Source of the DNA: Clostridia bacterium
GTDB taxonomy: Bacteria; Bacillota; Clostridia; Oscillospirales; CAG-272
Direction: 5' to 3'
NCBI GenBank assembly: GCA_017472695.1
Contig: JAFUOQ010000010.1
Location: forward strand, 22,187 to 86,186
DNA length: 64,000 nt
Within the stretch, counting starts at the first letter, position 1; every line of letters begins with the position of its first letter. The translations under genes and the position numbers were made by a program. A model generated the notes under the pieces. The model was not told the DNA's origin. It saw only the letters and a program-made list of their open reading frames with translations, and made no database searches. Positions 3,611-56,424 of this stretch are shown here, in pieces.

Positions 3611-3640
3611 GGGTGCACCAAATAGGCGCACCCTTTGTTG
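3611..3640 (+). terminator. Intrinsic terminator of the tkt operon
   Basis: GGGTGC-N10-GCACCC hairpin followed by TTTGTTG. Confidence 0.7.
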
Positions 3641-3961
3641 TAAATGTAGGGGACACATTGACACTCGAAAACTTGTTTTCGTTAGTGGAAAGCGTACAAG
3701 GGAGTACGGCGACTCGTAGGGGCTGCTCCTCCCAAAAGCTTTTTAGATCCATTCGACTCGCGTTCGCTCGCTCAGGATGACGTAACTTACAACGTCATTC
3801 CGAGCCTGTCGAGGAATCTAAAAAGGGAAAATAATATAATAAATTGTAGGAGAGGGCTTGCTCCTTTCGAAAATAATGAAACAATCAAACAAAACGGGAG
3901 GATGATATCCTCCCCTACAAAAAACACAAAAGAATGTAGGGGAGGCAATCTGCCTCCCTTT
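3641..3961. repeat. REP/BIME-like cluster of hairpin modules (C, D, A+B palindromic unit, E, F, G)
   Basis: Seven modules make up this cluster, each with a copy at 21545-21950:
- C: GTAGGGGACACATTGACACTC at 3647
- D: CGTTAGTGGAAAGCGTACAAGGGAG at 3680
- A: TAGATCCATTCGACTCGC..CTCAGGATGACGTA at 3744-3784
- B: ACGTCATTCCGAGCCTGTCGAGGAATCT at 3792-3819
- E: ATTGTAGGAGAGGGCTTGCTCC at 3843
- F: GGGAGGATGATATCCTCCCCTACA at 3896-3919
- G: GTAGGGGAGGCAATCTGCCTCCC at 3936-3958. Confidence 0.9.
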
Positions 3962-4456
3962 TTAATTCAATTTTATCGCCTCTATCACAATATCAAACTC
4001 GTATTTATCAGAGAAGATTTCTATTCTTTTTGGTAAATCGTTTTCACCTATTGTGATTTTATATGTGCCGAGTGTATTATTAAATTCCATACAGGCGCTG
4101 GATTTGTCAGGGGTGGCAGAGGCAAGGCTACTTTCCTCCAAGGAAAACATAGCAAGGATTGCCGAAACCCCGCTTAAATTATCGCTATCAAACGGAATTT
4201 CAACCTCGCCTGCACGCCCAATGATTTTTCCGTCAGTCTCTATAAAGGAAACAGAAGAAAGCTCCTCGGGATATAAAAACTGCAAGGAGCGAACACCCTC
4301 TTTTTTTGATACTGCCAGCTTATATTCGCCATTGAGAGAGCACTCTGCGTAAATGTCACCCTCTTGATACGATAAAATTCCATAGCTTTGTCCATGGCAC
4401 GAGGAAAGCACCAAGGAAAAAAGCAAAATAGACATAAAAATAGCAACCTTTTTCAT
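3962..4456 (-). CDS. Putative lipoprotein, unknown function
   Basis: 164 aa. Signal peptide with lipobox-like LSSC (MKKVAIFMSILLFSLVLSSCHG). Confidence 0.6.
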   Translation of the reverse strand: MKKVAIFMSILLFSLVLSSCHGQSYGILSYQEGDIYAECSLNGEYKLAVSKKEGVRSLQFLYPEELSSVSFIETDGKIIGRAGEVEIPFDSDNLSGVSAILAMFSLEESSLASATPDKSSACMEFNNTLGTYKITIGENDLPKRIEIFSDKYEFDIVIEAIKLN

Positions 4457-4496: not shown

Positions 4497-6806
4497 TTAT
4501 TCAAAAAGAATAACTATAACGCTTGTATCATCATTTGATTTATTATGAATTTTTGCAAGCTCTAAAATCTCGTTAGCAATTTTCTCGGTGTCTTGTGACT
4601 CTGTTTCCATCAGATAATTGTTTAGCCAATGGGTGTCACCCTTGCCGGATGCCACACCATCACTTAACATAACGCAAATATCCCCCTTTTCAAAATAGAA
4701 CGAGAGTCTTTCTGCATCTAGGCTTCTCATAATTCCGATAGGTGCAGTTTTGGAAAGGAGCTTAAATACCTTTTCGCCTCGTTTAATAAACGATGGAGAT
4801 GCGCCACTCTTTAAAAAGCTTGCACCCCTGCCGATAAGGTCAATTTCTAATAGGTCAACACTTGACGAGCACTCCATATTTTTTGAGCGCACAAAGTTAT
4901 TAAGGATAGAGAGGGCAACCTCCTTTTCACTTGAAACCTTTAATATTTTTTCAAGGAAGCTGGTACACATTTCCGAGGTTAATCGCGCCTCGTCACCTGT
5001 GCCCATACCGTCGCAAATTAAGAAGTATTCCTTATCATTTATTCCCTTAAAGGTTATAACGCTATCTCCGTTTGGCTCCTTGCCGGCAGAGAGGGATTTT
5101 ATGGTGCTTTTTGTTTTATATGCGGCTGTGCCATTTATTTCAAGAGAGTAGTGTCCTAAATGCTCGCTAATAATTGGACTTTCTAAAGGAATACCAAGCT
5201 CGCTTTCTAATTTTGCGCGTAGCTCCTCCTTTGTACAGCCTGTCCTTTTTGTGTCAACGCCTGTTGCTATAATATGCTTTTTAGCCCCACCCTTGACCTC
5301 AATTTTTTCATAAACAAGACCAAGCGAGGAGGCAACACGCATAGCTGTGTCGCAATACCTTGAATTTTCCTCGTCGTTTTCCTCGTTTCCTGCAAAAATT
5401 GCATTTAGCATTTTGGAGGTCAATTCAAAATTGCTTGCGCTAATGCTTAAACGGTCGTTTTTAATGCTATCTCTCACTATATTTTTTGATTTTTTAGAAA
5501 TGTCCTCGGTGATTTTTTCGACGTTTGGACAACGGTGTATAAACTTTTCCTCAAGTGCGCGATATTCTACCTCGTTTTTTAAAAGTGCCTCGTCGCTCAT
5601 TTTTAAAATGTTTGTTTTTGTCGTTTCAACATCACGCGTCCAGCATATTTCGTTTTTTGGACAGGAGTAGCAATAGCCCTCGCATACCTCAAAGCACATT
5701 TTTTCAAAGCCCTTTCTTGTTGGATTTTTTGTTTTGCTTGCAATCTCGTAAAGCATTTTTGAAATATCCTCAAACGATTCAGACATATTCTTTAGGCTTG
5801 TTCTCGTTTTTTCGTCTTGTCGTTCGAGCACTATTTCGCTAACTGTTTTTGATTTGCTTTCAAGCCTTAAAAATGAAGGGCGTGGCAAAAGCTCAAATCT
5901 CAAGACAGGATACATAATGAGTGAAGCACCCAGAATTTCTGGTGCTAAATATGCTATTGCCTCGTATCCGCTTGTGAAAATTCCGTATCCCATAACCACG
6001 ATAAAAGCGCACATAATGGCAAGATATGAGGATAATTTAAAAATAAGCCCTGCCACAATTCCCCCAAGTGCAAAAACAGGAGCAAAGGTGACATTAGCGC
6101 AAAGCCCTAAAATAGCGCCCAAGGTGGCAGATGCACCAAGCGAAAGATTTTTAGATGCGTACAAAACCAGCGCATAGGAAATGACTATTGAAAAATCAAT
6201 ACCACCAATTTCTTTGCCTCTTAAAAGATATATAATAGCAAACGCGAAGGTGCAAAAGGAAATTAAATATCCCTTGTCACGCTTGCCCTCAAAGGCACCG
6301 GAAAAGCCGTAGGAAATAAGGGGCGAAATAGCAGAGAAGAAAACAAGTGCGAAAATGTCATAAAACATATATCCATTTACAATTACATAATAAATCCCAA
6401 CGCCAAAGGAAACAGCCAAGGAAATAAAAATACGTGCGCTGATGTTTTCTTCAAACAAGCCATTGAAAATATTTCGGTGCTGGCGCTGATCGAGTAGTGG
6501 TGCACCCTCGTTTTCTGGCTTTTTAATTAAAGAGGCAATAAGCCTTAAAACTAAAATTACCGATAATGCAATGATATAAACGAGGTCGCTATCCATAAAA
6601 AAGAAAACAGATAAAATAGCGCCCGCGTATGCAAAAATTGTGTATTTTGTAGTTGCACACAAAAGCGCAATCCCAAAGGGATAAATTCCAAGGGCAAAGC
6701 GCAACGGGGTTAAGAAAAAGCCCAGAGCAAAGCAGAGGCACTCCCATAAAACCATTTTAACCTCGTTTGTTAATTTAATCTTTTTAAGTATGTTTATTTT
6801 TTGCAT
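4497..6806 (-). CDS. spoIIE: Stage II sporulation protein E (PP2C-type phosphatase with polytopic N-terminus)
   Basis: 769 aa with about 10 N-terminal TM helices. C-terminal PP2C block (FLICDGMGTGDEA ... MLSDGV ... NDDTSVIV). Confidence 0.85.
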   Translation of the reverse strand: MQKINILKKIKLTNEVKMVLWECLCFALGFFLTPLRFALGIYPFGIALLCATTKYTIFAYAGAILSVFFFMDSDLVYIIALSVILVLRLIASLIKKPENEGAPLLDQRQHRNIFNGLFEENISARIFISLAVSFGVGIYYVIVNGYMFYDIFALVFFSAISPLISYGFSGAFEGKRDKGYLISFCTFAFAIIYLLRGKEIGGIDFSIVISYALVLYASKNLSLGASATLGAILGLCANVTFAPVFALGGIVAGLIFKLSSYLAIMCAFIVVMGYGIFTSGYEAIAYLAPEILGASLIMYPVLRFELLPRPSFLRLESKSKTVSEIVLERQDEKTRTSLKNMSESFEDISKMLYEIASKTKNPTRKGFEKMCFEVCEGYCYSCPKNEICWTRDVETTKTNILKMSDEALLKNEVEYRALEEKFIHRCPNVEKITEDISKKSKNIVRDSIKNDRLSISASNFELTSKMLNAIFAGNEENDEENSRYCDTAMRVASSLGLVYEKIEVKGGAKKHIIATGVDTKRTGCTKEELRAKLESELGIPLESPIISEHLGHYSLEINGTAAYKTKSTIKSLSAGKEPNGDSVITFKGINDKEYFLICDGMGTGDEARLTSEMCTSFLEKILKVSSEKEVALSILNNFVRSKNMECSSSVDLLEIDLIGRGASFLKSGASPSFIKRGEKVFKLLSKTAPIGIMRSLDAERLSFYFEKGDICVMLSDGVASGKGDTHWLNNYLMETESQDTEKIANEILELAKIHNKSNDDTSVIVILFE

Positions 6807-7562: not shown

Positions 7563-8153
7563 ATGGAAAAAATCAGTTGGCGCGGTGGGGCTTTGGTTGC
7601 TCCTGTCCCTGCTGTTATGGTGTCACTTGGAGATATGGAAAGGTCGAATATAATTACTGTTGCGTGGTGTGGTATTACTAATACTGTTCCACCAAAAACA
7701 TATATTTCCGTTCGTCCCGAAAGGCATTCATATAATATACTAAAGGAAAGAAAGGAATTTGTTATAAATCTGACACCTGCTAATTTAACTAAAAAAGCAG
7801 ACTTTTGTGGAATGTACACAGGCAGAAGGATTGACAAATTCAAGGAGTGTGGCTTTACAAAGGAAAAGGCGACAAAAATAGATGCCCCAATGATAGGGGA
7901 GTGCCCAATTTCAATAGAGTGTAGGGTTACTGATATAATCAAGCTCGGCTCACACGATATGTTCCTTGCCGACATTTTGGCAGTCAATGTTGAAAAAGCA
8001 CTTTTAGAGGGCAACAAGCTTTGTATAAATCGCGCACACCTATGTGCATTTGCTCACGGTGAGTATTATAAATTAGGCGAAAGAATAGGCAAATTTGGAT
8101 TTTCAGTAAAAAAGAAAAAACCTATAAACAAAAAGCAATCCCCCACCTACTAA
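7563..8153 (+). CDS. Flavin reductase-like FMN-binding protein; C-terminus rewritten by repeat insertion
   Basis: 196 aa. Split-barrel flavin reductase-like N-terminus (NIITVAWCGITNTVPPKTYISVRPERHSY..EFVINL). The last 10 codons are encoded by an inserted element (8123-8153). Confidence 0.7.
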   Translation: MEKISWRGGALVAPVPAVMVSLGDMERSNIITVAWCGITNTVPPKTYISVRPERHSYNILKERKEFVINLTPANLTKKADFCGMYTGRRIDKFKECGFTKEKATKIDAPMIGECPISIECRVTDIIKLGSHDMFLADILAVNVEKALLEGNKLCINRAHLCAFAHGEYYKLGERIGKFGFSVKKKKPINKKQSPTY

Positions 8154-8231
8154 CGTAGGAGCCCCCTTTGCACAAGGGAGCCAAGGCGAAAGAATAGGCA
8201 AATTTGGATTTTCAGTAAAAAAGAAAAAACC
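8075..8231 (+). repeat. 61-bp double-hairpin element (8123-8183) flanked by a perfect ~48-bp direct duplication of the host CDS 3' end (8075-8122 and 8184-8231)
   Basis: AGGCGAAAGAATAGGCAAATTTGGATTTTCAGTAAAAAAGAAAAAACC occurs twice. Between the copies lies TATAAACAAAAAG-CAATCCC-CCACCTAC TAAC GTAGG-AGCCCCCTTTGCACAAGGGAGCCA. Reading through the second copy gives an alternative end ..KKKKPQQKKK-TAA at 8250. Confidence 0.9.
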
Positions 8232-8255
8232 ACAACAAAAGAAAAAATAAAATAA

Positions 8256-8365
8256 GCCTTCTCCAGTGGGCGATTCCCCTGCGAGGGGAAATGTCGCAAT
8301 GCGACAAAAGGGTTGCCGTCCTGCAAGGAAAGGTGGATTTTGCAAAGCAAAAGACGGATGAGGTG
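8256..8365. repeat. REP-like hairpin modules (includes module H)
   Basis: TTCCCCT-GCG-AGGGGAA at 8274-8290. TGTCGCA-A-TGCGACA at 8292-8306. GGTGGATTTTGCAAAGCAAAAGACGGATGAGG at 8332-8363 matches 21787-21815. Confidence 0.8.
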
Positions 8366-8404
8366 TCTTGTCCGTTAAAAATAATAAACAAGGAGAAAAC
8401 AAAA

Positions 8405-9172: not shown

Positions 9173-10255
9173 ATGATTCAATATATGTCTGCGCGTCAAG
9201 CTGCCGAAAAATGGAATATATCACAACGTAGAGTATCTGTTTTGTGTGCTGAAAACCGTATACCAGAAGCTGCAATGCTTGGTAATATGTGGATTATTCC
9301 TATAGATGCAACAAAGCCTGACGATGCTCGTAAAAACAATGGAGCTAAGATGAAAGAAAATGCACGTCCGTTTGTTAAATGGGCTGGAGGAAAAGGGCAA
9401 CTTGTGGATGTTTTAAAAATGAGTTTGCCCATTGGCTTTGGAAAAACAATAACTAAATATGCGGAGCCGTTTGTTGGTGGTGGCGCATTTCTTTTTACTA
9501 TACTAAACGAATATGAATTACAAGAGGTTTACATAAGCGATAACAACAAAGAATTAATAAACGTTTACGAGATAATAAAAAGAGATGTTGTTCTTTTAGT
9601 AAATTCATTGCAACTTTTGCAGGTTGAATATGACATGTGCAATATGGATGAAAAAGAACAGTATTATTATCATAAAAGAGAATTGTTTAATAATATGTCG
9701 CTTTGCAAAGAGACAAAAATTGAAAAGGCGGCACTATTTATCTTTCTAAACAAGACGTGTTTTAATGGACTTTATCGAGTAAATAAAAAAGGAAAATTCA
9801 ATGTTCCATTTGGTAAGCAGTCAACACCTACGATTTGCGACCAAGATAACTTGTTGAAAATTTCAAGAAAATTGCAAAATGTTAGTATTAATGCTTGTGA
9901 TTATCACAATGTAATTGATTTCGCAGATGACTCTACGTTGGTTTATTTTGATCCTCCGTATAGACCGTTAAATGCCACATCGGCTTTTACCTCTTATACA
10001 GAAAATCAATTCAATGATAATGATCAAATTGAGCTTGCTAACTTTTATAAGACGCTTTCTAGCAAGGGTGCAAAATTAATGCTAAGCAATTCCGATCCTC
10101 AAAATGTAAATCCAAACGACAAATTCTTTGAAGAATTATATTGGGATTTTGAAATCCATCATATTAAAGCATATCGAATGATTAATAGTAAGGGTTCATC
10201 AAGAGGAGCAATTCAAGAACTTTTAATTACAAATTATAAGGAGTGTATAAAATGA
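9173..10255 (+). CDS. Type II DNA adenine-N6 methyltransferase, Dam/D12 class, with N-terminal HTH domain
   Basis: ATG at 9173 lies 7 nt after AGAGGA. N-terminal HTH-like segment (SARQAAEKWNISQRRVSVLCAENRIPEA). Then FVKWAGGKGQL, FVGGGAFLF and VYFDPPYRP motifs. Confidence 0.85.
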   Translation: MIQYMSARQAAEKWNISQRRVSVLCAENRIPEAAMLGNMWIIPIDATKPDDARKNNGAKMKENARPFVKWAGGKGQLVDVLKMSLPIGFGKTITKYAEPFVGGGAFLFTILNEYELQEVYISDNNKELINVYEIIKRDVVLLVNSLQLLQVEYDMCNMDEKEQYYYHKRELFNNMSLCKETKIEKAALFIFLNKTCFNGLYRVNKKGKFNVPFGKQSTPTICDQDNLLKISRKLQNVSINACDYHNVIDFADDSTLVYFDPPYRPLNATSAFTSYTENQFNDNDQIELANFYKTLSSKGAKLMLSNSDPQNVNPNDKFFEELYWDFEIHHIKAYRMINSKGSSRGAIQELLITNYKECIK

Positions 10256-10791
10256 TAAAAAGTGGAAAAGGTGGAGGCAACACAAGAACAGGACTTGTGT
10301 TTGAAGGAAAAACCGATTTGTCAACATTTTTAGCAGAACAACCACACTATAGTTTGGTCGGAAATGATGTGTATTATGATAACAAAAAGGTAGCCGAGGT
10401 TTATAAAAAGTATAAGTTTTATAGTGTTTTTCTTGCCAAGCTTGGAATAGATTGGAAACAATATATTTCTAAAAGATTACTGCCTGATGATAGTATTTTT
10501 GTTTTGCTTAACAACGTGCTATTTATTATTGAATGTAAGCACCAAGAGGTTGCCGGTTCAGTAGATGAAAAGTTGCAAACATGCGATTTTAAAAAGAAAC
10601 AATACAAAAAGCTTATGGCTTCTGCAAATATTGATGTTGAGTATATATATTTGCTCGATGATTGGTTTAGACAAGAGCAATATACAGATGTTTTGAATTA
10701 CATACATTCTGTTGGATGTGACTATTATTTTGAATATATTCCGCTGCATAGATTAGGATTGCCAGTTCCACCAGAGCTTGTAAAAGATTAA
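10252..10791 (+). CDS. Putative type II restriction endonuclease (PD-(D/E)XK fold)
   Basis: ATGA overlap with the MTase stop, and AGGAG upstream. Candidate catalytic motif LPDDSIFV..(13)..IIECKHQ. The gene is sandwiched between two MTase genes. Confidence 0.55.
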   Translation: MIKSGKGGGNTRTGLVFEGKTDLSTFLAEQPHYSLVGNDVYYDNKKVAEVYKKYKFYSVFLAKLGIDWKQYISKRLLPDDSIFVLLNNVLFIIECKHQEVAGSVDEKLQTCDFKKKQYKKLMASANIDVEYIYLLDDWFRQEQYTDVLNYIHSVGCDYYFEYIPLHRLGLPVPPELVKD

Positions 10792-13097: not shown

Positions 13098-13318
13098 TGG
13101 TAAAAAATATGAAAAAGAACAAGATTTTAAAAATCAAATTAAGCGAGGATGTGGCAAAGAAATTTGCCATCGTCGCAGAAAACGAAAAAATGACACTCCA
13201 AAATGAAATCATTTCTATGATTCGCCAAAAAATTTCATATTACGAAAGAGTAAAGGGCAATATCAAAAGAGAAGCCCTCGACTCCGCCAATATGAGCGAA
13301 TATTCAGACGAGGAATGA
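13097..13318 (+). CDS. Small hypothetical protein (possible ribbon-helix-helix-like)
   Basis: 73 aa. TAATG overlap with the yifB-like stop. No motif recognised. Confidence 0.4.
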   Translation: MVKNMKKNKILKIKLSEDVAKKFAIVAENEKMTLQNEIISMIRQKISYYERVKGNIKREALDSANMSEYSDEE

Positions 13319-13627
13319 TGGAAAACAAGGATTTGCCAAAACGAAAACCGAATAGATTGAGATGCTTTGACTATAGCATGCCAAAAGGCTATTTTATAAC
13401 AATTTGCACAGAAAATAGAAGCAAGCCCCTCCCCTACAATATCAGATATTGTTTGTGCGTTTAAATCACAATGCGTGCGAAATTGTAGGAAAACAGGCTT
13501 TGAGGGAAAGCTTTTCCAACGCTCGTTCCACGATCACATAATAAGAAACCGAGACGACTATGAAGAAATCTCAAAATACATTTACGAAAACCCTATAAAC
13601 CGGGAGACGGATGAATTTTATAATTAA
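13315..13627 (+). pseudogene. Decayed REP-associated tyrosine transposase (RAYT/IS200-Y1-like) gene
   Basis: N-terminal piece MENKDLPKRKPNRLRCFDYSMPKGYFITICTENRSK ends in a stop at about 13460. The C-terminal piece, in another frame, is ..IVCAFKSQCVRNCRKTGFEGKLFQRSFHDHIIRNRDDYEEISKYIYENPINRE. The middle, where the HUH motif is expected, is missing. The junction carries CCCCTCCCCTACAAT, which is a GTAGGGGAGGGG REP head on the other strand. Confidence 0.6.
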
Positions 13628-17442: not shown

Positions 17443-17463
17443 TTTGTATAAACTAAATAAACA

Positions 17464-17491
17464 AAAAGCCACGAGCAATCGTGGCTTTTTT
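17464..17491 (+). terminator. Intrinsic terminator fused to palindromic repeat unit
   Basis: GCCACG-AGCAAT-CGTGGC hairpin followed by TTTTTT. Same design as 21516-21544, with compensatory stem changes. Confidence 0.85.
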
Positions 17492-17610
17492 AGATCCTTC
17501 GACTCGCTTCGTTCGCTCAGGATGACGTAGCGATTAGACCCATTCGACTGCGCTCAGGGTGACATGCAAATGTATCTTAATACGTCATTCCGAGCTTGCC
17601 GAGGAATCTC
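17491..17610. repeat. Palindromic unit A+B with nested extra left arm
   Basis: TAGATCCTTCGACTCGCTTCGTTCGCTCAGGATGACGTA at 17491-17529. Variant AGACCCATTCGACTGCGCTCAGGGTGACA at 17536-17564. ACGTCATTCCGAGCTTGCCGAGGAATCT at 17582-17609. Confidence 0.9.
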
Positions 17611-17960
17611 TTGTATGGAATGGCGCCCTCAATATCACGAAAACAATCAATGCGTATCGCAAAAATGTGAATCTCAGGTGTTTTTCTCAAGATTGACAAA
17701 AATAACTTTTTTTGATATAATAAAAATGTTAACGATAGTGAAATAATTTTTTCAAAATATGTAAAAGTTAAGGCTCTTTTTTGTTTTTGCGATATATAAT
17801 TAATTACATTAATACGGTTTAAAATTTATAAAATTTTATATGTCAAAATATTTGTGAAATCGGAGGATGCGCCAATGGAAAAAATCGTTTGATGTGATGC
17901 CAAGTTTTCTTGTGTTATCACAAAAATTATTCAGAATACAAATGTGAAAAGAAGAAAATT

Positions 17961-20449: not shown

Positions 20450-21496
20450 ATGAAAAAGAGATTGTTAATTATTTTAACAGCGGTGCTTTTAATCTTCATG
20501 CTCTTTTCTTGTGGGAAAACAAGCACGGAAACTGACACACAGAGAGCGACAGACACAAAAACCGACATACAGAGCGAAACAAATACAGAAACTGACACAC
20601 AAACTACTGATACAAATGTGAGCGAGGATAAAGAAAACAATAACGTAATAACAGATTCCATCGCCAATATGACCATTGTAAGCAAGGAGCATAGCTACTA
20701 TACAACTCTAAATGAGATGGAATATAAAGGTGAGGATTTCCCGAACGAGCGTGGCACATATATCAAGTTGATAAAAACGGCAGAAGAATTTAAGACTTGC
20801 TTTGAATGTGAAAATGTTGAAAAAACAGTTCTTGAAAACAACTATATTCTTGCTTTAAAAATACACGAGGATATCACACTTTATAGCTACAAAATGATAG
20901 GATGTCATAATTTGGAATATAAAGACGGAGAATATCAAATAAGCTTGGATTATTACAGACAAGTGGTTGGAGATAATGAAAAAGATAGAATATATCCAGA
21001 AATTGCAGAAGAAATAAGTGTTGTTAAATTTTTTGTTTTACCAAAAACGGAAGTTGAAGCCTTTGATAACGTCCAAAATGTAAAAATCAATAAAAATTTA
21101 ATTGATAATACATTTTCATCAAGGAGCTATGCCAAGCATTACGGTTGTTCAGATGCTCCTAAAAGCTCAACAGCTTGGCTCATAACGGAAGAAAACAGAA
21201 CAAATTTGATTGAATCATTTAATCTACATAAAAACATTGAAAAAGGGGATTTGTTAGTGTATTTTCCGTTTGAAATGCGTGGAGATATAAGTCTTGTCAA
21301 AGCGGAAATGAATGGAAGTATGTTAAATGTGGTATTTGAAAATTATACGCATGTTGAAAATGAATATGTAGCAAAAAATGATGCAAGATATTTTTTGATA
21401 GACAATTTTCAAGCTTATCAAAATGTACCTGATGATTATGAAGTAAGTATTACGATAAATGTCATATATATTCCTTGTATAACCATATACGAATGA
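20450..21496 (+). CDS. Lipoprotein with T/D/Q-rich linker, unknown function
   Basis: ATG at 20450 lies 8 nt after AGGAG. Lipobox LFSCGK. TETDTQ-type low-complexity linker. Confidence 0.6.
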   Translation: MKKRLLIILTAVLLIFMLFSCGKTSTETDTQRATDTKTDIQSETNTETDTQTTDTNVSEDKENNNVITDSIANMTIVSKEHSYYTTLNEMEYKGEDFPNERGTYIKLIKTAEEFKTCFECENVEKTVLENNYILALKIHEDITLYSYKMIGCHNLEYKDGEYQISLDYYRQVVGDNEKDRIYPEIAEEISVVKFFVLPKTEVEAFDNVQNVKINKNLIDNTFSSRSYAKHYGCSDAPKSSTAWLITEENRTNLIESFNLHKNIEKGDLLVYFPFEMRGDISLVKAEMNGSMLNVVFENYTHVENEYVAKNDARYFLIDNFQAYQNVPDDYEVSITINVIYIPCITIYE

Positions 21497-21515
21497 TATT
21501 ATTTAAAATCAATGC

Positions 21516-21544
21516 AAAAATCCCCGAGCAATCGGGGATTTTTT
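21516..21544 (+). terminator. Intrinsic terminator fused to palindromic repeat unit
   Basis: TCCCCG-AGCAAT-CGGGGA hairpin followed by TTTTTT. Confidence 0.85.
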
Positions 21545-21950
21545 AGATCCTTCGACTCGCATTCGCTCGCTCAGGATGACGTAGCTTTTGCGCTTCACAA
21601 CGTCATTCCGAGCTTGTCGAGGAATCTATTAGCAGGAGGATTTAAAATTGTAGAGGAAGGGCTTGCTCCTCCCGAAAAATAAAGGATGAAGCAAACGGGA
21701 GGATGATATCCTCCCCTACATAGAACAATATTGATACATCGTAGGGGACACATTGACACTCAAAAACTGCCTCCATCCTTGAGGGAGGTGGATTTTGCGG
21801 AGCAAAAGACGGAAGGAGTATCGTTAGTGGAAAGCGTACAAGGGAGCGTAGCGAGTCGTAGGCAATCTGCCTCCCGAAAATATTTTTAGATCCATTCGAC
21901 TCGCTTTGCTTCGCTCAGGATGACGTAGGGGCGAACATTGTTCGTCCGCC
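21545..21950. repeat. Large REP/BIME-like cluster (modules A, B, E, F, C, H, D, G, A, I)
   Basis: Same module set as 3641-3961 but in a different order, with module H (also at 8332) inserted between C and D. It ends with GTAGGGGCGAACATTGTTCGTCCGCC, which is also present at 54663. Confidence 0.9.
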
Positions 21951-22116
21951 AAAATAATACGACAAAACAGGAGGGTTTTCCCCACCCGTTATTTTTAAAA
22001 ATTTACACATTTTTAATAAAAAAGTGATATACTAAAATTTAGGTTACTTAATATACAGTTAATATTTAAGTATTAATATAATATGATGTATTAGATTCAA
22101 AGGAGGGCAGAGAGGT

Positions 22117-25100
22117 ATGGAATTTTATCGTGTTGGTATTGACATTGGTTCAACTACTGTAAAAATAGTAGCTATTGACAAAAATGACGAAATAGTTTTT
22201 GGCAAATATGAAAGACACCTTTCTCACACTAAAGAGAAGCTCTGTCAGCTTTTGGGCGAGCTTAAAAATGAGCTTGGCGAGATTAAAATAAAGGCGAAAA
22301 TCACAGGCTCTGGCTCTATTAACTTGGGCAAAGCGCTTGGTATTGGCTTTGTGCAGGAGGTTAGTGCCGTTGCCGAGGCACTAAAAAAATTAGCACCAAA
22401 AACCGACGTGGCTATTGAGCTTGGTGGCGAGGATGCGAAAATAATCTACTTCGATGGTAACAATATCGAAGAGAGAATGAATGGTATTTGTGCGGGAGGA
22501 ACCGGCTCATTTATTGACCAAATGGCAGCGCTTTTGCAGACAGATGCCAAGGGCTTAAATGAGGAAGCCAAGAATTACGAAAGAATTTACCCAATTGCGG
22601 CGCGCTGTGGCGTGTTTGCAAAAACTGATATTCAACCGCTTATAAACGAGGGCGCAACAAGGGCAGACCTGTCAGCCTCAATTTTCCAAGCGGTAGTAAA
22701 CCAAACGGTTTCTGGTCTTGCTTGTGGTAAGCCAATACGCGGTACGGTTGCATTCCTTGGTGGTCCACTCCATTTTTTGACCGAGCTAAAGGCTTCATTT
22801 ATTAGAACCTTAAAATTAACACCCGAAACAACTGTTGACCCAGACAACTCACACCTTTTTGCCGCATTTGGCTCGGCTCTTGAGTCGGATGATGCCGAGG
22901 AGCTTCTTTTGAGCGCGCTTCTTGCTAAACTAGACGCAGGGGTAGAGATGCGCTTTGAATTAAAAAGACTCCCAGCACTCTTTGAAAATGAAGAGGAGTA
23001 TAAAGAGTTCTCATCTCGTCACGAAAAGGCAAAGGTAAAAAGAGCAGAGATAAAGGATTACAGGGGAAATACATATTTAGGAATTGACGCAGGCTCAACA
23101 ACCACAAAATTGGCGCTTATCGGCGAAAATGGTGAGCTTTTATATTCCTTCTACTCAAATAATCAAGGCTCACCCATAAACACGGCAAAAAGAGCTATAA
23201 AAGAGCTTTCCTTGGTTATGCCAAAGGAAGCAACTATTAAATATGCTTGCTCCACAGGATATGGAGAAAAGCTTTTAAAATCAGCATTCAATTTAGATAT
23301 GGGCGAGGTTGAAACCATTGCCCACTGTACCGCCGCATCATTCTTTGACCCACAGGTTGACTGTGTTCTTGATATTGGTGGACAGGATATGAAATGCATA
23401 AAAATCAAAAACGGCTCGGTAGATAACATTCTTTTAAATGAGGCTTGTTCATCTGGTTGTGGCTCGTTTATTGAGTCCTTTGCAAATTCTCTTGGTTATC
23501 AAGCAAAGGATTTTGCACGCGAGGCAATTTACGCAAAGAATCCAATTGACCTTGGCACTCGCTGTACTGTTTTTATGAACTCAAATGTTAAGCAAGCGCA
23601 AAAGGAAGGCGCATCCGTGCCCGATATTTCCGCAGGTCTTGCGTATTCTGTCATTAAAAACGCAATGTTTAAGGTAATTAAATTAAATACCGCCTCTGAC
23701 CTTGGTAGCCATGTGGTTGTACAGGGCGGAACATTCTATAACCACGCAGTTTTGCGCGCACTTGAAAAAATTTCGGGTGTACTTGTTACTTGCCCTGATA
23801 TTTCAGGCATTATGGGTGCTTTCGGCGCTGCACTTTTGGCGCGCCAAAACGCAATAGGCACAAAAAGCTCTATGCTCTCGTTTGAGGAGATTGAGGCACT
23901 CACCTACACAAGCGCAACAGTGAGATGCAAGGGCTGTTCAAATAGCTGTATTTTGACTGTAAATACCTTTGAGGGTGGCAGAAGATACATAACAGGCAAC
24001 AGATGTGAAAAGGGCGGAGAGGAAAAAGGCTCAACCCCAAAGGGAGAGAACCTTGTCGCTTACAAGCTAGAAAGAATTTTCGGCTATGAGCCACTCTCCG
24101 AGGGAAAAGCAAAATTTGGAAAAATTGGTATTCCAAGAGTGCTTAATATTTATGAAAATTATCCATTTTGGGCGACCTTCTTCCGTGAGCTAGGCTTTAG
24201 CGTAGTTCTTTCACCTAAATCGACCAAAAAAATATACGAGCTTGGTATGGAAACAATCCCGTCAGAATCGGAATGCTATCCTGCCAAAATGGCGCACGGC
24301 CACATAAAATGGCTAATTGAAAACGGAGTAGACACAATATTCTACCCCTGTATTTTCCTAGAAAATCAAGAATCATGCGTGGCACAAAACCACTATAACT
24401 GCCCAATTGTTGTTTCCTGCTCGGAAAATATTAAAAACAATGTAGAGGAAATAGTTGAGGGCAAAATCAATTATTTAAGACCTTTTATCGCATTCACAAG
24501 CGAAAAAACAGTTGCCGACCGCTTGGCTAGATATTTCTGCCACGAAAAGGGATATGACCTAACTGAAAAAGCGGTTAGACGCGCAGTTAAACTCGCATGG
24601 CGCGAGCAAAAGGAAGCAAAAGAGGATATAAGACGCAAGGGCAAAGAGGTTTTAGAGGAGCTTGAAAAGACAGGTGGACGTGGCATTGTTTTGGCGGGTA
24701 GACCTTACCATATCGACCCTGAAATTAACCACGGAATACCAGAGCTAATAGCATCTTATGGCTTTGCAGTCCTCACCGAGGACTCGCTCCCAGAGGTTTA
24801 TGAGGAGATTGAGAATTTAAGGGTTAACGACCAATGGGTTTACCACTCACGTCTATATAATGCCGCTGCTTACGTGCGCTCACGTGAGCACTTGGAGCTA
24901 ATTCAGTTAAACTCCTTTGGCTGTGGAATTGACGCAGTAACAACCGACCAAGTGTCTGAAATTTTAGATGGCTCGGGCAAATTATATACTGCACTTAAAA
25001 TTGACGAGGTTAACAACCTAGGTGCAATTAGAATTCGTGTTCGCAGTCTTATTAGCGCTATGAATATGCGTAGGAAAAAATGCATAGCCCCTCACGAAGC

Positions 25101-43794: not shown

Positions 43795-45501
43795 TTATTC
43801 CTCGTCGTCCTTTGCCTTTGAAGACTTAACGATAACTGAGCTATCAGCCTCGAGAGCCTTAACAAGCTTGCGAGCGAGAAGGTCCTCTGTTTCTGCATAT
43901 GGATATTCAGCCACATAGTCAACCTTTTTAGCCTTTGGATCTGGCTCAATACCAAATTTAGCCATTACGATATCAACGATTTCCTTTGCCTTACGTAGAC
44001 CAAGACCACTCTTAATCTTTAGGAGCATTGGAACCTCTGCGAAAATCTTTGCATCGATAGCATCGTGGTGGTATTTTGACTTGTCAAATTCTTCTGGATT
44101 AAGTGCGCAGTATACACAAACAGTCTTACCACGGAGCTTAATCTTAAAGAGCTGATCCCTACCTCTGTTGTAGCTATCAAACTTCCAGCTAATCTTCGAT
44201 TTAGTACCCTTATATGAAAGAATATGGTTCTTCAATTGACTGTAGTAATCCTTAACTGTTTCGTCACTTTGGATTAGGTTAGCAGTAAAGCTACGGCTGT
44301 ACTTGATTTCAATCTTGTTACCTTCGTTATCAAAGTATGTAGGAATGATAGTAGGAACAACCTCGCCAACCTCTTCAACAACAGTTTCCTCAACTGGAGC
44401 ATCGTCCTCAACGATAGGAGCAACCTCGTCAGCTACATCCTCAACAACTGCCTCTTCAACAGCTACGTCCTCAACAGCTGCTTCCTCAACAACTGTTTCT
44501 TCAACAGCTACGTCTTCAGCAACTGTTTCTTCAACAGCTACGTCTTCAGCAACTGTTTCTTCGGTAGCCTTTGGCATTGGCTCTTCAATGATTTCCTCTT
44601 GAATGTATACCTCGGTAGCTTCAACAGGAGCTTCGGTTTCATCTTCAACGGCAGGAGCAACCTCGTCAGCTATCTCTTCGTTATTTTCAATAGCGGAGTA
44701 AAGTTGAATTGTAAATACGGAATCTGTATCGCCCCTTTCGATAATAGCCTCACCGTTTGGCTCTACACCCCAACCAACAAAGGATTGGTTACCTGCGTAG
44801 GTGTCTGGTGCACAAAGGTTAACATAATGAGATTCCTTGTAGATGAATTTATCTGTGTTACTGTCAAGGAAGAGAAGCTCAACAACAGCAGTTTCATTAA
44901 ATTCCTCGTTGCTTGGCTTTGCGTTTTCGTCAAAAATAGGATATAGATTAATAGCAAATACTGCGCTAACCTCGTCACCCTCAAGAACAATCTCGCCACC
45001 CTTTTCAAAGCTCCATCCGCTTGCTTTTACTGGAACATCTTGGTTTTCTGGCAAAATAGCATTAATTTTAGTTGTATTAGCTTTAATGATGTTTTCACAT
45101 TCAGCATCTAAATAATTGAGCTGAACAAAAACACCCTCTGCCTTCTTCTTTGCCTCTGCAATCTCATCCTCGTCTGCCCAAACAGCATAGAGAACAACTG
45201 TGTGAGTGAGAAGAAATTCAGGCTCGGAGATAATGTTTTCACCTTCTGGATCTAGACTCCAGCCGATAAACACTCTGCCTTCCTTAATTGCTGGGCGAAC
45301 AACTGCTTTTGAGAGCCAAGGCTTTTTCTCATACTCAATTTCATAATCGCCCTCGGTGTCAACGTAAACAACTTGACAACGAATAACAGCTGCGAGAATA
45401 GCACAGATGATACAAACCGCTGCAACTATAGCGCAACCAACGACGCTAACATTGAAAATATCAAATCCAGCGCCAAAAAGAATTGTGTTTACAAATTCCA
45501 T
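43795..45501 (-). CDS. Membrane-anchored surface protein with Listeria/Bacteroides-type repeats, acidic V/E/A linker and conserved C-terminal domain
   Basis: 568 aa with an N-terminal TM. Three repeats of the F(I/V)GW..(P/E).G..I pattern. Linker VAEDVAVEETVAEDVAVEETVVEE. Confidence 0.55.
   Translation of the reverse strand: MEFVNTILFGAGFDIFNVSVVGCAIVAAVCIICAILAAVIRCQVVYVDTEGDYEIEYEKKPWLSKAVVRPAIKEGRVFIGWSLDPEGENIISEPEFLLTHTVVLYAVWADEDEIAEAKKKAEGVFVQLNYLDAECENIIKANTTKINAILPENQDVPVKASGWSFEKGGEIVLEGDEVSAVFAINLYPIFDENAKPSNEEFNETAVVELLFLDSNTDKFIYKESHYVNLCAPDTYAGNQSFVGWGVEPNGEAIIERGDTDSVFTIQLYSAIENNEEIADEVAPAVEDETEAPVEATEVYIQEEIIEEPMPKATEETVAEDVAVEETVAEDVAVEETVVEEAAVEDVAVEEAVVEDVADEVAPIVEDDAPVEETVVEEVGEVVPTIIPTYFDNEGNKIEIKYSRSFTANLIQSDETVKDYYSQLKNHILSYKGTKSKISWKFDSYNRGRDQLFKIKLRGKTVCVYCALNPEEFDKSKYHHDAIDAKIFAEVPMLLKIKSGLGLRKAKEIVDIVMAKFGIEPDPKAKKVDYVAEYPYAETEDLLARKLVKALEADSSVIVKSSKAKDDEE
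44431..44565 (-). repeat. In-frame 30-bp tandem repeat encoding the acidic linker
   Basis: AACTGTTTCTTCAACAGCTACGTCTTCAGC is perfect at 44491-44520 and 44521-44550. Degenerate copies lie on both sides. Confidence 0.85.
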
Positions 45502-54357: not shown

Positions 54358-54538
54358 AATGCAGTAAATTTTTAAGGAAGAAAAGAGGGCATTACCCACT
54401 TTTCAATGTGTGATTTTTACACACGACCGAGTCCTCTGTCGTACACCAGTACGCCGACGTTGACTCGCTCGTGCATTTTCCCTACCTCTTGAAGGCTCTA
54501 ATCAAAATTGGTGCGTATTGTCAGAAATAGTAATATTT

Positions 54539-54712
54539 TAGGGGGGAGGCTTGCTCCTCCCGATTTTATGTCAGGTGTAAAATTGTACGTGTGACCATTG
54601 ATCACCATAAAAAAGAGACTCGGTAAGGCGGACTTCTCATAAGGATGTTTACCTGACACACGGTAGGGGCGAACTGCGTTCGCCCGCGTGAGACCACAGT
54701 TCCCCCTACGAA
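54539..54712. repeat. REP-like module cluster
   Basis: TAGGGGGGAGGCTTGCTCCTCCC at 54539 (module E type). AAAAAAGAGACTCGGTAAGG..CTTCTCATAAGGA at 54609, related to 56127-56170 on the opposite strand. GTAGGGGCGAACTGCGTTCGCCC at 54663 (module I). An inverted head GTTCCCCCTAC at 54699. Confidence 0.8.
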
Positions 54713-55953: not shown

Positions 55954-56153
55954 AGTTATATTCCGACTGCGTCGGAGTGATATTATCGCTTACGCAATAG
56001 TGATATTGAAGCCTTACGGCTTCAGTGATATTTTATTCGCCTTCAAAACTCGCGAAGCGAATACCACTCGGCGCAAGCCGAATATCACTGCGAAGCAATA
56101 TCACTCGCCGCAAGGCGAATAAAACTGCCCAACTTCCTTATGAGAAGTTGGGC
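55954..56153. repeat. Mirror-symmetric array of eight 9-mer boxes (AGTGATATT x4 then AATATCACT x4) separated by mini-hairpins
   Basis: Left boxes at 55954 (AGTTATATT), 55976, 55999 and 56024. Right boxes at 56060 (AATACCACT), 56081, 56097 and 56118 (AATAAAACT). The hairpin spacers are:
- CCGAC-TGC-GTCGG
- GAAGCC-TTAC-GGCTTC
- CGGC-GCAA-GCCG
- GC-GAA-GC
- CGCC-GCAA-GGCG
- final GCCCAACTTC-N7-GAAGTTGGGC at 56127-56153. Confidence 0.85.
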
Positions 56154-56172: not shown

Positions 56173-56424
56173 TTATTTAACAGTAACAACCTTATAGTCT
56201 TTCCATCCTTAAAGTCTTAAGCCTCCTTTGTGCAAAGGGAGGTGGGTTGCGATAGCAACTCGGAGGGATTGATTATTTAACTACTACAGATACCTTGTGT
56301 GTCTTTCGATCCTTAAAGTCTTAAGCCTCCTTTGTGCAAAGGGAGGTGGGTTGCGATAGCAACTCGGAGGGATTGATTATTTAACTACTACAGATACCTT
56401 GTGTGTCTTTCCATCCTTAAAGTC
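56173..56424 (-). repeat. 104-bp tandem unit: 48-bp copy of the GH94-like CDS 3' end + 56-bp double-hairpin element; 2 units plus a diverged third CDS-end copy
   Basis: CDS-end copies at 56377-56424 (functional), 56273-56320 (1 mismatch) and 56173-56216 (diverged, 4 nt shorter). Identical elements at 56321-56376 and 56217-56272 (TTAAGCCTCCTTTGTGCAAAGGGAGGTGGGTTGCGATAGCAACTCGGAGGGATTGA). Confidence 0.9.

Follow-up and report, generated by a model that had tools for sequence, protein, structure and literature searches.

A probable BIME-like cluster of REP elements and the remnant of a RAYT gene in a gut Clostridia genome

A window of 64,000 nucleotides (the whole stretch of DNA analyzed here) from a Clostridia bacterium (GTDB lineage Bacteria; Bacillota; Clostridia; Oscillospirales; CAG-272; GenBank assembly GCA_017472695.1, contig JAFUOQ010000010.1, positions 22,187 to 86,186 of the forward strand) carries a string of short modules in the intergenic region 21497-22116, between a gene for a 354-aa protein and a gene for a 1420-aa protein of the 2-hydroxyacyl-CoA dehydratase/activase type. 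The string begins after a strong hairpin (module T; 21516-21545, plus strand), the intrinsic terminator of the 354-aa gene, which has a 12-pair stem and a T-run that enters the first module, arm A. The cluster components are of three kinds: GTAG-tagged repetitive extragenic palindromic (REP) elements (modules E, F, G, and I), a palindrome made of two (C/T)GTC-headed arms (A and B), and linker or other hairpin modules (C, D, H, and J). The region is very probably a REP cluster resembling a bacterial interspersed mosaic element (BIME), part of a REP/BIME system with a REP-associated tyrosine transposase (RAYT), in gut Oscillospiraceae-like Clostridia, that is, a known kind of system extended to a new host group. 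To our knowledge, nearly all descriptions of REP-RAYT systems concern Proteobacteria, Cyanobacteria, and a few other phyla. A first-pass annotation, made by a model from the sequence alone, had proposed a multi-family REP/BIME-like system with GTAG heads in a Clostridia-like genome. The hairpin anatomy, the RAYT remnant, and the presence of module E inside RAYT homologs agree with that proposal, and the modules lie at the coordinates that it gave, although it lacked the RAYT remnant (13318-13627), the CGTC-like nature of A and B, the cyclic module order, and a further cluster at 17487-17611.

Modules E, F, G, and I are canonical GTAG-tagged REPs of several sequence families. In each of them, as in a copy at 54663, GTAG is followed at once by the stem, which has 8 bp with a GGG/CCC foot and closes on a loop of 3-4 nt, giving elements of 23-24 nt. 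Five intact hairpins of this kind lie in the intergenic DNA of the window (two of type F, one of type G, and two of type I), with folding energies of -5.7 to -9.2 kcal/mol and z scores of -2.3 to -4.7 relative to shuffles. Module F (GTAGGGGAGGATATCATCCTCCC; 21697-21719, minus strand) has an 8-bp stem, a 3-nt loop, and a z score of -4.7, and an identical copy stands at 3896-3918. Module I (GTAGGGGCGAACATTGTTCGTCC; 21925-21947, plus strand) has a 3-nt loop and an 8-bp stem with one G-T pair, and has a relative at 54663-54685. The G-type REP of the cluster (GTAGGCAATCTGCCTCCC; 21858-21875, plus strand) is truncated, lacking the 5' half of its stem, and matches the 3' part of the intact G (3943-3958) at 16 of 16 positions. 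Module E (GTAGAGGAAGGGCTTGCTCCTCCC; 21650-21673, plus strand) is a degenerate REP of the type found inside RAYT genes and no longer folds (-2.5 kcal/mol, z 0.26). Across 18 copies of GTAG REPs from 10 loci, pairs 4-8 of the stem are variable on both sides and the GGG/CCC foot is near invariant; these pairs were counted by script, as MAFFT had placed the length difference at the 3' end and not in the loop. Some of the REPs are arranged as doublets. F and module C (21741-21768, plus strand), a GTAGGGG head without a hairpin or any stable fold, stand as two inverted GTAG heads on either side of the spacer ATAGAACAATATTGATACATC (21720-21740), which makes 21697-21768 a REPIN-like doublet, and the same spacer recurs between REPs of a congeneric species (L002 850-873 and 14757-14780). 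Elsewhere in the window, the intact G (3936-3958) and F (3896-3918) are inverted relative to each other and pair in the fold of 3646-3958.

The heptamer GTAGGGG occurs 14 times on the two strands of the window, compared with 2.41±1.40 times in 100 dinucleotide-preserving shuffles, none of which reached 14. This excess of about six-fold is focused in non-coding DNA, since 10 of the 14 occurrences fall in the ~7.4 kb (~12% of the window) outside long open reading frames (ORFs). Among the 4-nt heads of perfect 8-bp intergenic hairpins, AAAA, which belongs to terminators, is the commonest and GTAG the second. As single strands, the clusters fold far better than shuffles (z scores of -5.1 and -9.1, the latter for 3646-3958). 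In total, we counted ~13 GTAG-tagged REP copies in the 64 kb and ~1.1-1.2 kb of module DNA. The first-pass annotation had named a lack of GTAG-head enrichment over shuffled controls as grounds for refutation, and the enrichment is present. Its figures need adjustment: its more than 1.5 kb of module DNA is too high, and its 15 or more GTAG(G) heads are reached only with degenerate heads and plain GTAG included, the strict heptamer giving 14. Its statement that most modules consist of a GTAGG head and a hairpin holds for E, F, G, and I but not for C (a head without a fold), A and B (palindrome arms), or D and H (modules of other kinds).

Further clusters were found in the window. The sister cluster at 3646-3958, of the order C-D-E'(truncated)-A-B-E(degenerate)-F-G, lies between convergent genes and after the terminator of a transketolase gene (3611-3636). 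The cluster at 17487-17611 consists of A-A'(nested)-B directly 3' of the terminator of a pyruvate:ferredoxin oxidoreductase (PFOR) gene, and that at 54535-54709, again between convergent genes, holds an E-like REP with a mutated head (TTAG; 54535-54561), an intact I-like REP (54663-54685), and an opposed CTAC foot (54706-54709). Every cluster is located downstream of a gene and has neighbors that are either unidirectional or convergent. In blastn comparisons of the clusters with the window, 3740-3926 corresponded to 21540-21727 (A-B-E-F; 197 nt, 80% identity), 3679-3784 to 21821-21927 (D, truncated REP, and A; 107 nt, 83%), 3646-3673 to 21741-21768 (C; 96%), and 8331-8358 to 21786-21813 (H; 93%), together with shorter matches of 54548-54563 to 21660-21675 (E-like) and of 54663-54687 to 21925-21949 (I-like). 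The modules therefore recur where the first-pass annotation had placed them, including H at 8332 and the I and E-like modules at 54539-54712, but their order is not shuffled, as it had supposed. The three blocks shared by 21541-21947 and 3646-3958 are collinear when the unit is read as a circle: each large cluster is the same composite unit, A-B-E-F-C-(H)-D-REP', circularly permuted; the unit has a period of 344 nt, and its REPs face both directions. The cluster at 21541 comprises ~1.1 units starting at A, and that at 3646 one unit starting at C. Taken together, the recurrence, the GTAGGGG enrichment, and the folding indicate that the observation is real and not due to chance.

The large shared blocks also open the question of how the clusters were copied. 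An alternative to a RAYT-driven system is local segmental duplication and recombination, spreading with gene cassettes, in which RAYT would be irrelevant and the likeness to REPs would reflect hairpins favored by recombination or by terminator function. The collinear blocks of 107-197 nt at 80-83% identity between the two large clusters are what this alternative would produce. It is further favored by a pair of 71-nt direct repeats: the terminator together with arm A at 21515-21585 is 91.5% identical to 17462-17531, with compensatory changes in the stem, and the two copies bracket a 4-kb cassette of an S8 peptidase gene and the 354-aa protein gene, a place taken by other cassettes in L002 and in a second congeneric species, L270. 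In L270, the PFOR 3' end and its terminator (2684-2767) are duplicated ~185 nt downstream with inverted H and J modules between them, and the terminator appears once more (5844-5872) after a cassette. The state of the RAYT gene in the window, described next, is a further point in its favor.

A RAYT (TnpA-REP) pseudogene lies at 13318-13627 (plus strand), in which 34 N-terminal codons are followed, in a different frame, by 69 C-terminal codons. The first fragment encodes MENKDLPKRKPNRLRCFDYSMPKGYFITICTENR and the second, in the next frame, EASPSPTISDIVCAFKS...LFQRSFHDHIIRNRDDYEEISKYIYENPIN; the joined fragments match the NCBIfam model REP_Tyr_transpos (NF047646) with an E value of 4.6e-11. The closest homolog is an intact 166-aa protein (P0001) encoded at the orthologous site, between a 69-aa gene and the PFOR gene, in L002 and L003, two loci that differ by one mismatch in 20.5 kb. 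The remnant is 86% identical to P0001 over the aligned residues (75% by BLASTP over 81% of the query), and the window and L002 are syntenic over the interval bounded by the transketolase and 1420-aa genes, with 72-91% nucleotide identity. Relative to L002, the remnant has lost ~183 nt (L002 10109-10290; boundaries at window 13417-13425 and L002 10108 and 10291) that contain a first REP arm, the HUH motif, and half of a second REP arm. The Y motif is kept, and because the HUH motif is gone, the window gene is dead. Full-length homologs have 164-172 aa, some of them named 'REP element-mobilizing transposase RayT' by JGI, and 8,661 representatives (50% identity clusters) match the family at E <= 1e-10. 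P0001 matches E. coli TnpA-REP (PDB 4ER8; E = 3.6e-5) and the NCBIfam RAYT model (E = 4e-18), the latter with 65.7 bits and thus under the equivalog cut-off of 80 bits, and has the motifs PNHIHII, LFQRSFHDH (LWQ in P0009 and P0011), and YIYENP. On sequence grounds, the enzyme of the E family is a small HUH/Tyr nuclease, a RAYT. The E-type copies of the window are likewise all defective: those at 21650 and 3846 are unfolded, that at 54535 folds but has a TTAG head, that at 3716 is truncated, and 13418-13440 is the half-arm in the pseudogene. In L002, which has the intact RAYT, and in L270, E-type copies are perfect hairpins, some with compensatory changes. With its RAYT inactivated and every copy in the window defective, the E family is probably a decaying fossil in this strain; a REP family that decays once its enzyme is lost would give this pattern, as we infer from small numbers. 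The intact F, G, and I elements may depend on other RAYT paralogs.

Module E matches the RAYT ORF of L002 twice, at 10121-10151 in forward orientation (93.5% identity) and at 10287-10314 inverted (92.9%). A 24-mer, GTAGGGGAGGGGCTTGCTCCTCCC, occurs in forward and inverted orientation, ~164 nt apart, inside the RAYT ORFs of L002, L141, L142, and L144, and is identical in all four despite the unrelated neighborhoods of these genes. The first-pass annotation had suggested looking for a RAYT gene flanked by a specific module pair; no modules flank the gene, which contains them instead. The arms are in frame on either side of the HUH motif, the forward copy of GTAGGGGAGGGGCTTGCTCCTCCC encoding VGEGLAPP and the inverted copy, in the frame of the gene, GGASPSPT. 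Two in-frame arms are also present in the RAYTs of L273, where GTAGGGCGGGGGCTTGCTCCCGCC occurs twice (VGRGLAPA and AGASPRPT), and of L265, where the arms are GTAGGGGAGGATATTATCCTCCC and GTAGGGGAAGATATCATCTTCCC and each hairpin is kept by compensatory G>A and C>T changes. At the DNA level, compensatory changes preserve the hairpins in both L265 and L273. The RAYT genes of L141, L142, L144, L265, and L273 overlap an unrelated upstream gene or start 0-12 nt after it, in five different neighborhoods. As single-stranded DNA the two in-gene arms pair with each other at -49.2 kcal/mol (z -8.8). At the protein level, we checked in 164 homologs if the reverse complement of arm 1 could encode arm 2. Compatibility averaged 5.10 of 6 positions, compared with 3.47±0.09 when the pairing was shuffled, and 111 of the 164 proteins were fully compatible; with distinct arm pairs counted once, full compatibility was seen in 13 of 63 cognate pairs and in 3 of 2334 non-cognate pairs. 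The F-type REP also has a counterpart among RAYT genes. It encodes VGEDIILP, the arm peptide of the homologs P0190, P0227, and P0233, and the F-type REP of the window is the arm of this other RAYT lineage (VGEDIILP and G[KR]MISSPT) bar one loop base. An origin of the conserved doublet spacer from the RAYT codons after arm 2 was rejected, as the local alignment score was equaled by 39 of 500 shuffles.

REPs inside RAYT genes are of a known kind, as the motifs and features of this family fit those of TnpA-REP subclass 2.4, which is group 4 of Bertels. That subclass is characterized by the HuH motif NH[IFV]H, a WQ motif, and the Y motif YIxNNP, by a stem foot of three G-C pairs and 'double-foot' REPs, and, uniquely, by in-frame REPs within the gene after the HuH strand, in an insert of highly variable length and sequence (PMC6006769). 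Its hosts are mainly Cyanobacteria and Bacteroidetes (PMC6006769), those of group 4 being Cyanobacteria, Chlorobia, and Caldilineae (PMC5581495), with scattered further phyla. The present family likewise has NHIH, (F/W)Q, and YIYENP, the GGG/CCC foot, in-frame REPs, and a double-foot REP (GTAGGGGAATAACCTCCCCTAC; L002 839-860), so that its motifs fit an assignment of the E-family RAYT to subclass 2.4/group 4. It differs in that most homologs sampled have two arms, before and after the HuH motif, which covary as reverse complements. Neither this paired arrangement nor arm covariation was found in the text of PMC6006769, and both are incremental additions to what is known of in-gene REPs. We tentatively suggest, as a possibility that falls well short of our confidence in the cluster itself, that a clostridial RAYT gene carries its cognate REPs as an in-frame doublet whose arms are kept reverse-complementary and hairpin-forming by selection at the DNA or RNA level in many lineages that differ in REP sequence, so that the gene would be the source of the enzyme and, at once, a protected master copy or a self-recognition site.

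The covarying in-gene pair bears on the duplication alternative, because recombination alone does not explain why the E 24-mer should be kept as an inverted, covarying pair in RAYT genes. The dispersal of the modules points the same way. In metagenomes, the exact E 24-mer has at least 129 copies in the 120 stretches listed, 113 outside RAYT genes and 16 in or next to them. The dispersed copies in these stretches typically lie in A+T-rich non-coding DNA, often after a terminator-like hairpin or beside other GTAG REPs, CGTC-like arms, or H-like modules. One example is a goat-colon Clostridia metagenome-assembled genome (MAG; L201), in which a post-terminator cluster combines A/B-type arms, E, G, another GTAG REP, and an H-like module. 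Among the matches listed for a scan of viral contigs with GTAGGGGAGG N7-8 CCTCCC, E-like hairpins were found outside RAYT genes, and some matches were the T-arms of tRNAs. A restriction of the modules to the window, which would have meant a local duplication only, is thus contradicted by their presence in L002, L201, L270, and at least 113 dispersed metagenome copies. Single modules that stand alone, or with different neighbors, at unlinked loci and in other genomes, and an exact E 24-mer in at least 113 unrelated contexts, are difficult to reconcile with duplication and recombination without RAYT. We consider this alternative rather unlikely as an account of the system; it probably describes the copying of composite units but not the identity of the modules.

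The interval from the PFOR gene to the 1420-aa gene holds entirely different modules and cassettes in the three congeneric species. The window has T-A-A'-B, the cassette of S8 peptidase and 354-aa protein, and T-A-B-E-F-C-H-D-G'-A-I; L002 has T, a helix-turn-helix (HTH) gene on the opposite strand, and F'-spacer-G; and L270 has T, inverted H and J, the duplicated PFOR 3' end with a second terminator, an inverted REP, a spacer, a perfect E, a partial A, another cassette, and T. All four breaks of synteny between the window and L002 are at module sites, one of them being an insert of ~250 nt (8134-8378). Such turnover between species is the behavior expected of mobile or recombinogenic repeats. 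It also bears on a second alternative, that the modules are functional RNA elements reached by read-through (3'-UTR stabilizers, auxiliary terminators, or small RNAs) and not mobile DNA. The position of every cluster downstream of a gene would suit such a role, as would the hairpin and T-run formed by G at 3936-3962, the folding of the clusters beyond shuffles (z -5.1 and -9.1), and the known effects of REPs on mRNA stability and termination in other bacteria (PMC3733652). The presence of different modules at orthologous loci of congeneric species, however, argues against a locus-specific RNA function. Besides, the clusters begin after strong intrinsic terminators, several module copies are truncated or unfolded, and Rfam gave no family over the modules and nothing credible in 21400-22150 even at E values up to 10. 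We therefore judge the RNA alternative improbable, more so than duplication. Readings as a ribozyme, a CRISPR-like array, or tRNA-derived elements were rejected in view of the lack of Rfam matches, the irregular spacing, and the absence of tRNA genes from the window (ARAGORN). The sole Rfam hit in the window was a Gut-1 RNA (RF01706) at 56056-56127 (minus strand), with 56.3 bits against a gathering score of 50, which fits a gut origin. This RNA and the source names of the homologs are the basis for calling the host Oscillospiraceae-like.

A and B together make up an imperfect head-to-head palindrome of ~85 nt, each forming one arm, with the facing heads GACG and CGTC, not GTAG. Arm A (CGTCATCCTGAGCG...GAAGGATCT; 21541-21584, minus strand), the left half, is a CGTC-like REP arm that occurs four times in the window and reads GACGT on the plus strand. 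In the single-stranded DNA fold it pairs with B, of which it is the inverted partner with a larger, 15-nt loop. Arm B (ACGTC ATTCCGAG CTTGT CGAGGAAT CT; 21600-21629, plus strand), also a CGTC-like REP arm, has three copies. The second arm A of the cluster (21884-21927, minus strand) has no B partner, and its end overlaps the GTAG of module I. The stem of B is made of ATTCC/GGAAT (five pairs) followed by G.A, A.G, and G-C, leaving the loop CTTGT if the G.A pairs are counted. A 25-mer of the B arm, GTCATTCCGAGCNTGNCGAGGAATC, gave at least 144 exact matches in more than 10 phyla among the matches listed for a scan of a genome collection. The hosts among these matches include Bacteroidota, Chloroflexota, Patescibacteria, Verrucomicrobiota, Planctomycetota, Actinomycetota, Nitrospirota, WOR-3, several proteobacterial classes, and many Clostridia. 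In the 144 copies listed, the base at -1 of the arm is T in 88 and C in 53 (141 of 144); a partner arm within 90 nt is placed tail-to-tail in 45 copies and head-to-head in 10, and 89 have none. After GGAATC, the tails are TCG, TCT, and TTT, and CCA follows in 6 of the 144 copies. Within 400 nt of a CGTC-like arm, a GTAGGGG hairpin was seen at 3 of the 25 Clostridia loci and at 1 of the other 95 loci, numbers that are too few for a claim. A literature search for the literal arm sequence gave no relevant match, and a scan of viral contigs with a 17-mer of arm A was uninformative, returning only chance matches in phage coding sequence. Besides these dispersed arms, GTCATTCCGAGCNTGNCGAGGAATC is found in MAGs of Coriobacteriales and Bacteroidales at the end of tandem arrays whose shorter units are GTCATTCCGAGC-like, and four 25-mer arms each form tandem arrays with a period of ~100-130 nt in L233 (a Chloroflexia MAG) and in L246 and L255 (Clostridia MAGs), which suggests array-forming variants of the 25-mer-arm element.

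Judged from their sequences, A and B resemble CGTC-tagged REPs, a likeness that stops short of established membership in that superfamily. In the 2013 survey of GTAG and CGTC repeats, which lists no Firmicutes, CGTC-tagged REPs have a CGTC/TGTC (or CCTC) tag, a stem of 8-9 bp that opens with two A-T pairs, a loop of 4-5 nt, and a CCA tail; they occur mostly as head-to-head dimers, show strong cross-phylum similarity, and 'apparently lack a dedicated transposase' (PMC3733652). A and B agree with these elements as described there (e.g. Neisseria dRS3 and Rickettsia RPE-4/6) in the (C/T)GTC head, the ATTCC...GGAAT start with two A-T pairs, the 5-nt loop of B if the G.A pairs are counted, the head-to-head arrangement in the window, the lack of a dedicated transposase nearby in the 120 loci listed, the coexistence with GTAG REPs, and the cross-phylum similarity. 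By the same description, they differ in that their '8-bp' stem consists of five Watson-Crick pairs, tandem G.A/A.G, and one G-C pair with a weak single-arm fold, in a CTN tail instead of CCA, in the 15-nt loop of arm A, and in the prevalence of tail-to-tail over head-to-head pairs elsewhere (45 vs 10 of the 144 copies listed). The (C/T)GTC arm, co-clustered with GTAG REPs in Clostridia, could share their machinery. A different explanation would take A-B and the other long modules for miniature inverted-repeat transposable elements (MITEs) that belong to a classical DDE transposon and have no relation to RAYT, and the length of ~85 nt, the terminal inverted sequences TTTTTAGATCC...GGAATCTAAAAA, and the long hairpin of A-B do recall such elements. 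We found by inspection, however, no target-site duplication at the three A-B copies, and the window has no transposase gene other than the RAYT remnant. As, in addition, 89 of the 144 listed B arms have no partner within 90 nt and the exact arm extends over more than 10 phyla, unlike lineage-specific MITEs, this explanation appears highly improbable.

The remaining modules are linkers or hairpins of other kinds. Module H (21769-21820, plus strand) consists of two hairpins (CCTCC..GGAGG, then GGTGG-ATTTTGC-GGA-GCAAAAG-ACGGA) and forms a 52-nt insertion between C and D that is missing from the sister cluster (3646-3715); its other copy in the window is at 8318-8367, and relatives are found at L201 5270-5320 and L270 2566-2600. 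Module D (21821-21856, plus strand), to which no kind was assigned, has two copies in the window. Neither D nor C was found in the other loci compared. Modules J and H lie together (8273-8367, plus strand) in the ~250-nt insertion. In L002 the two genes at this site are separated by only 19 nt, and nothing in L002 6865-6964 corresponds to window 8134-8378; at another locus, L002 2727-2770 is 93% identical to module J. A direct duplication (8075-8139 and 8184-8248; spacing 109 nt, 65 nt at 88% identity with an identical core of 48 nt) adjoins this J/H insert and spans the end of the ORF 7563-8153. A tandem repeat beside the Gut-1 RNA (56197-56424; 104-nt unit, 2.2 copies, 99% identical) carries the hairpin CCTCCTTTGTGCAAAGGGAGG, to which the hairpin GCCCCCTTTGCACAAGGGAGC at 8161-8181 is related, and these may be a further family of hairpin modules. 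A 15-nt periodic repeat of at least nine units at 44352-44562, inside the 568-aa ORF 43795-45501 (minus strand), is apparently a coding repeat unrelated to the REP modules.

Compared with known systems, the cluster shares with E. coli REPs and BIMEs a GTAG immediately 5' of a G+C-rich hairpin, several REP families in one genome, mosaic clusters after genes with alternating orientation and linker motifs, and a HUH/Tyr nuclease homologous to 4ER8. The recurrence of a composite unit with linkers at a 344-nt period and at a second locus, with REPs in both directions, is also BIME-like. Differences from E. coli are that the stems are short and perfect (8 bp) instead of long and bulged, that the host is a Firmicute, and that the RAYT gene is not flanked by REPs. 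As in the REPIN-RAYT systems of Pseudomonas (Bertels and Rainey 2011), a short conserved spacer joins two inverted REPs into a longer hairpin (21697-21768 and 3896-3958 in the window; 839-896 and 14737-14803 in L002), and RAYT occupies the same chromosomal site in two related species (the window and L002). Unlike in those systems, the RAYT homologs of other genomes have unrelated neighborhoods, and an inverted REP pair is present also inside the RAYT ORF.

We infer RAYT catalysis and REP mobility by taking the biochemistry of E. coli TnpA-REP and IS200/IS608 as the model for the mechanism (PMC6006769; PMC3479197). By this analogy, REP hairpins would extrude in single-stranded DNA such as the lagging-strand template, and RAYT would recognize the hairpin together with its 5' GTAG guide and would cut and rejoin the strand. 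REPs, doublets, or larger composite units would thereby be copied into permissive intergenic sites, often beside existing REPs and terminators, and the clusters may be reshaped further by recombination between repeats, a second process suggested by the fact that entire composite units are copied and by the 71-nt direct repeats that bracket the S8 cassette. In transcripts, the hairpins may also serve the host, for example in transcript-end stabilization or termination.

This interpretation as a REP/BIME-RAYT system builds on the observed anatomy, enrichment, identity with RAYT-internal arms, covariation, dispersal, and species turnover, and several observations weigh against it. The sole RAYT in the window is dead, and no RAYT cognate to the G or I family was found. 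No REP flanks the RAYT gene of the window or of L002, unlike in a REPtron; the L002 gene overlaps its upstream gene and has a plain terminator after it. At six RAYT loci of other genomes, the surrounding ±10 kb contain few REPs or none, which indicates that REP abundance near the gene is not general. No RAYT was found in the 120 loci listed with a B arm, and the fold of one B arm by itself is weak (-1.7 kcal/mol, z 0.2). The GTAG-hairpin anatomy is missing from A/B, C, D, and H. The near-complete stem pairing of the GTAG REPs (143 of 144 stem cells in the 18 copies) comes from a set preselected for folding and carries that ascertainment bias. The 107-197 nt blocks shared by the big clusters could have been copied as blocks by recombination instead of module by module. 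Finally, other contigs of the same strain (L001, L268, and L269) are 100% identical to the window, so that no insertion polymorphism is visible within the species.

With the cluster read as a REP/BIME-RAYT system, uncultured gut Clostridia (Oscillospiraceae-like) carry several REP families in mosaic clusters at places where gene content differs between species. The clusters generate spurious small ORFs in annotations, as in the 56-aa ORF called inside the module cluster (L001 4081-4251 and L269 5396-5566; ~21512-21682 in the window), and mark variable islets in assemblies and strain comparisons of gut MAGs. Both the covarying in-gene REP pair and the pan-bacterial (C/T)GTC arm merit further attention. 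The paired, covarying arms offer a natural experiment on the matching of a domesticated nuclease with its repeats, here in a setting where the RAYT is dead and its cognate REPs have decayed next to non-cognate REPs that are intact. If the tentative reading of the in-frame doublet is true, the doublet would serve autoregulation or guaranteed co-inheritance, and loss of the arms, as in the window, would end the REP family.

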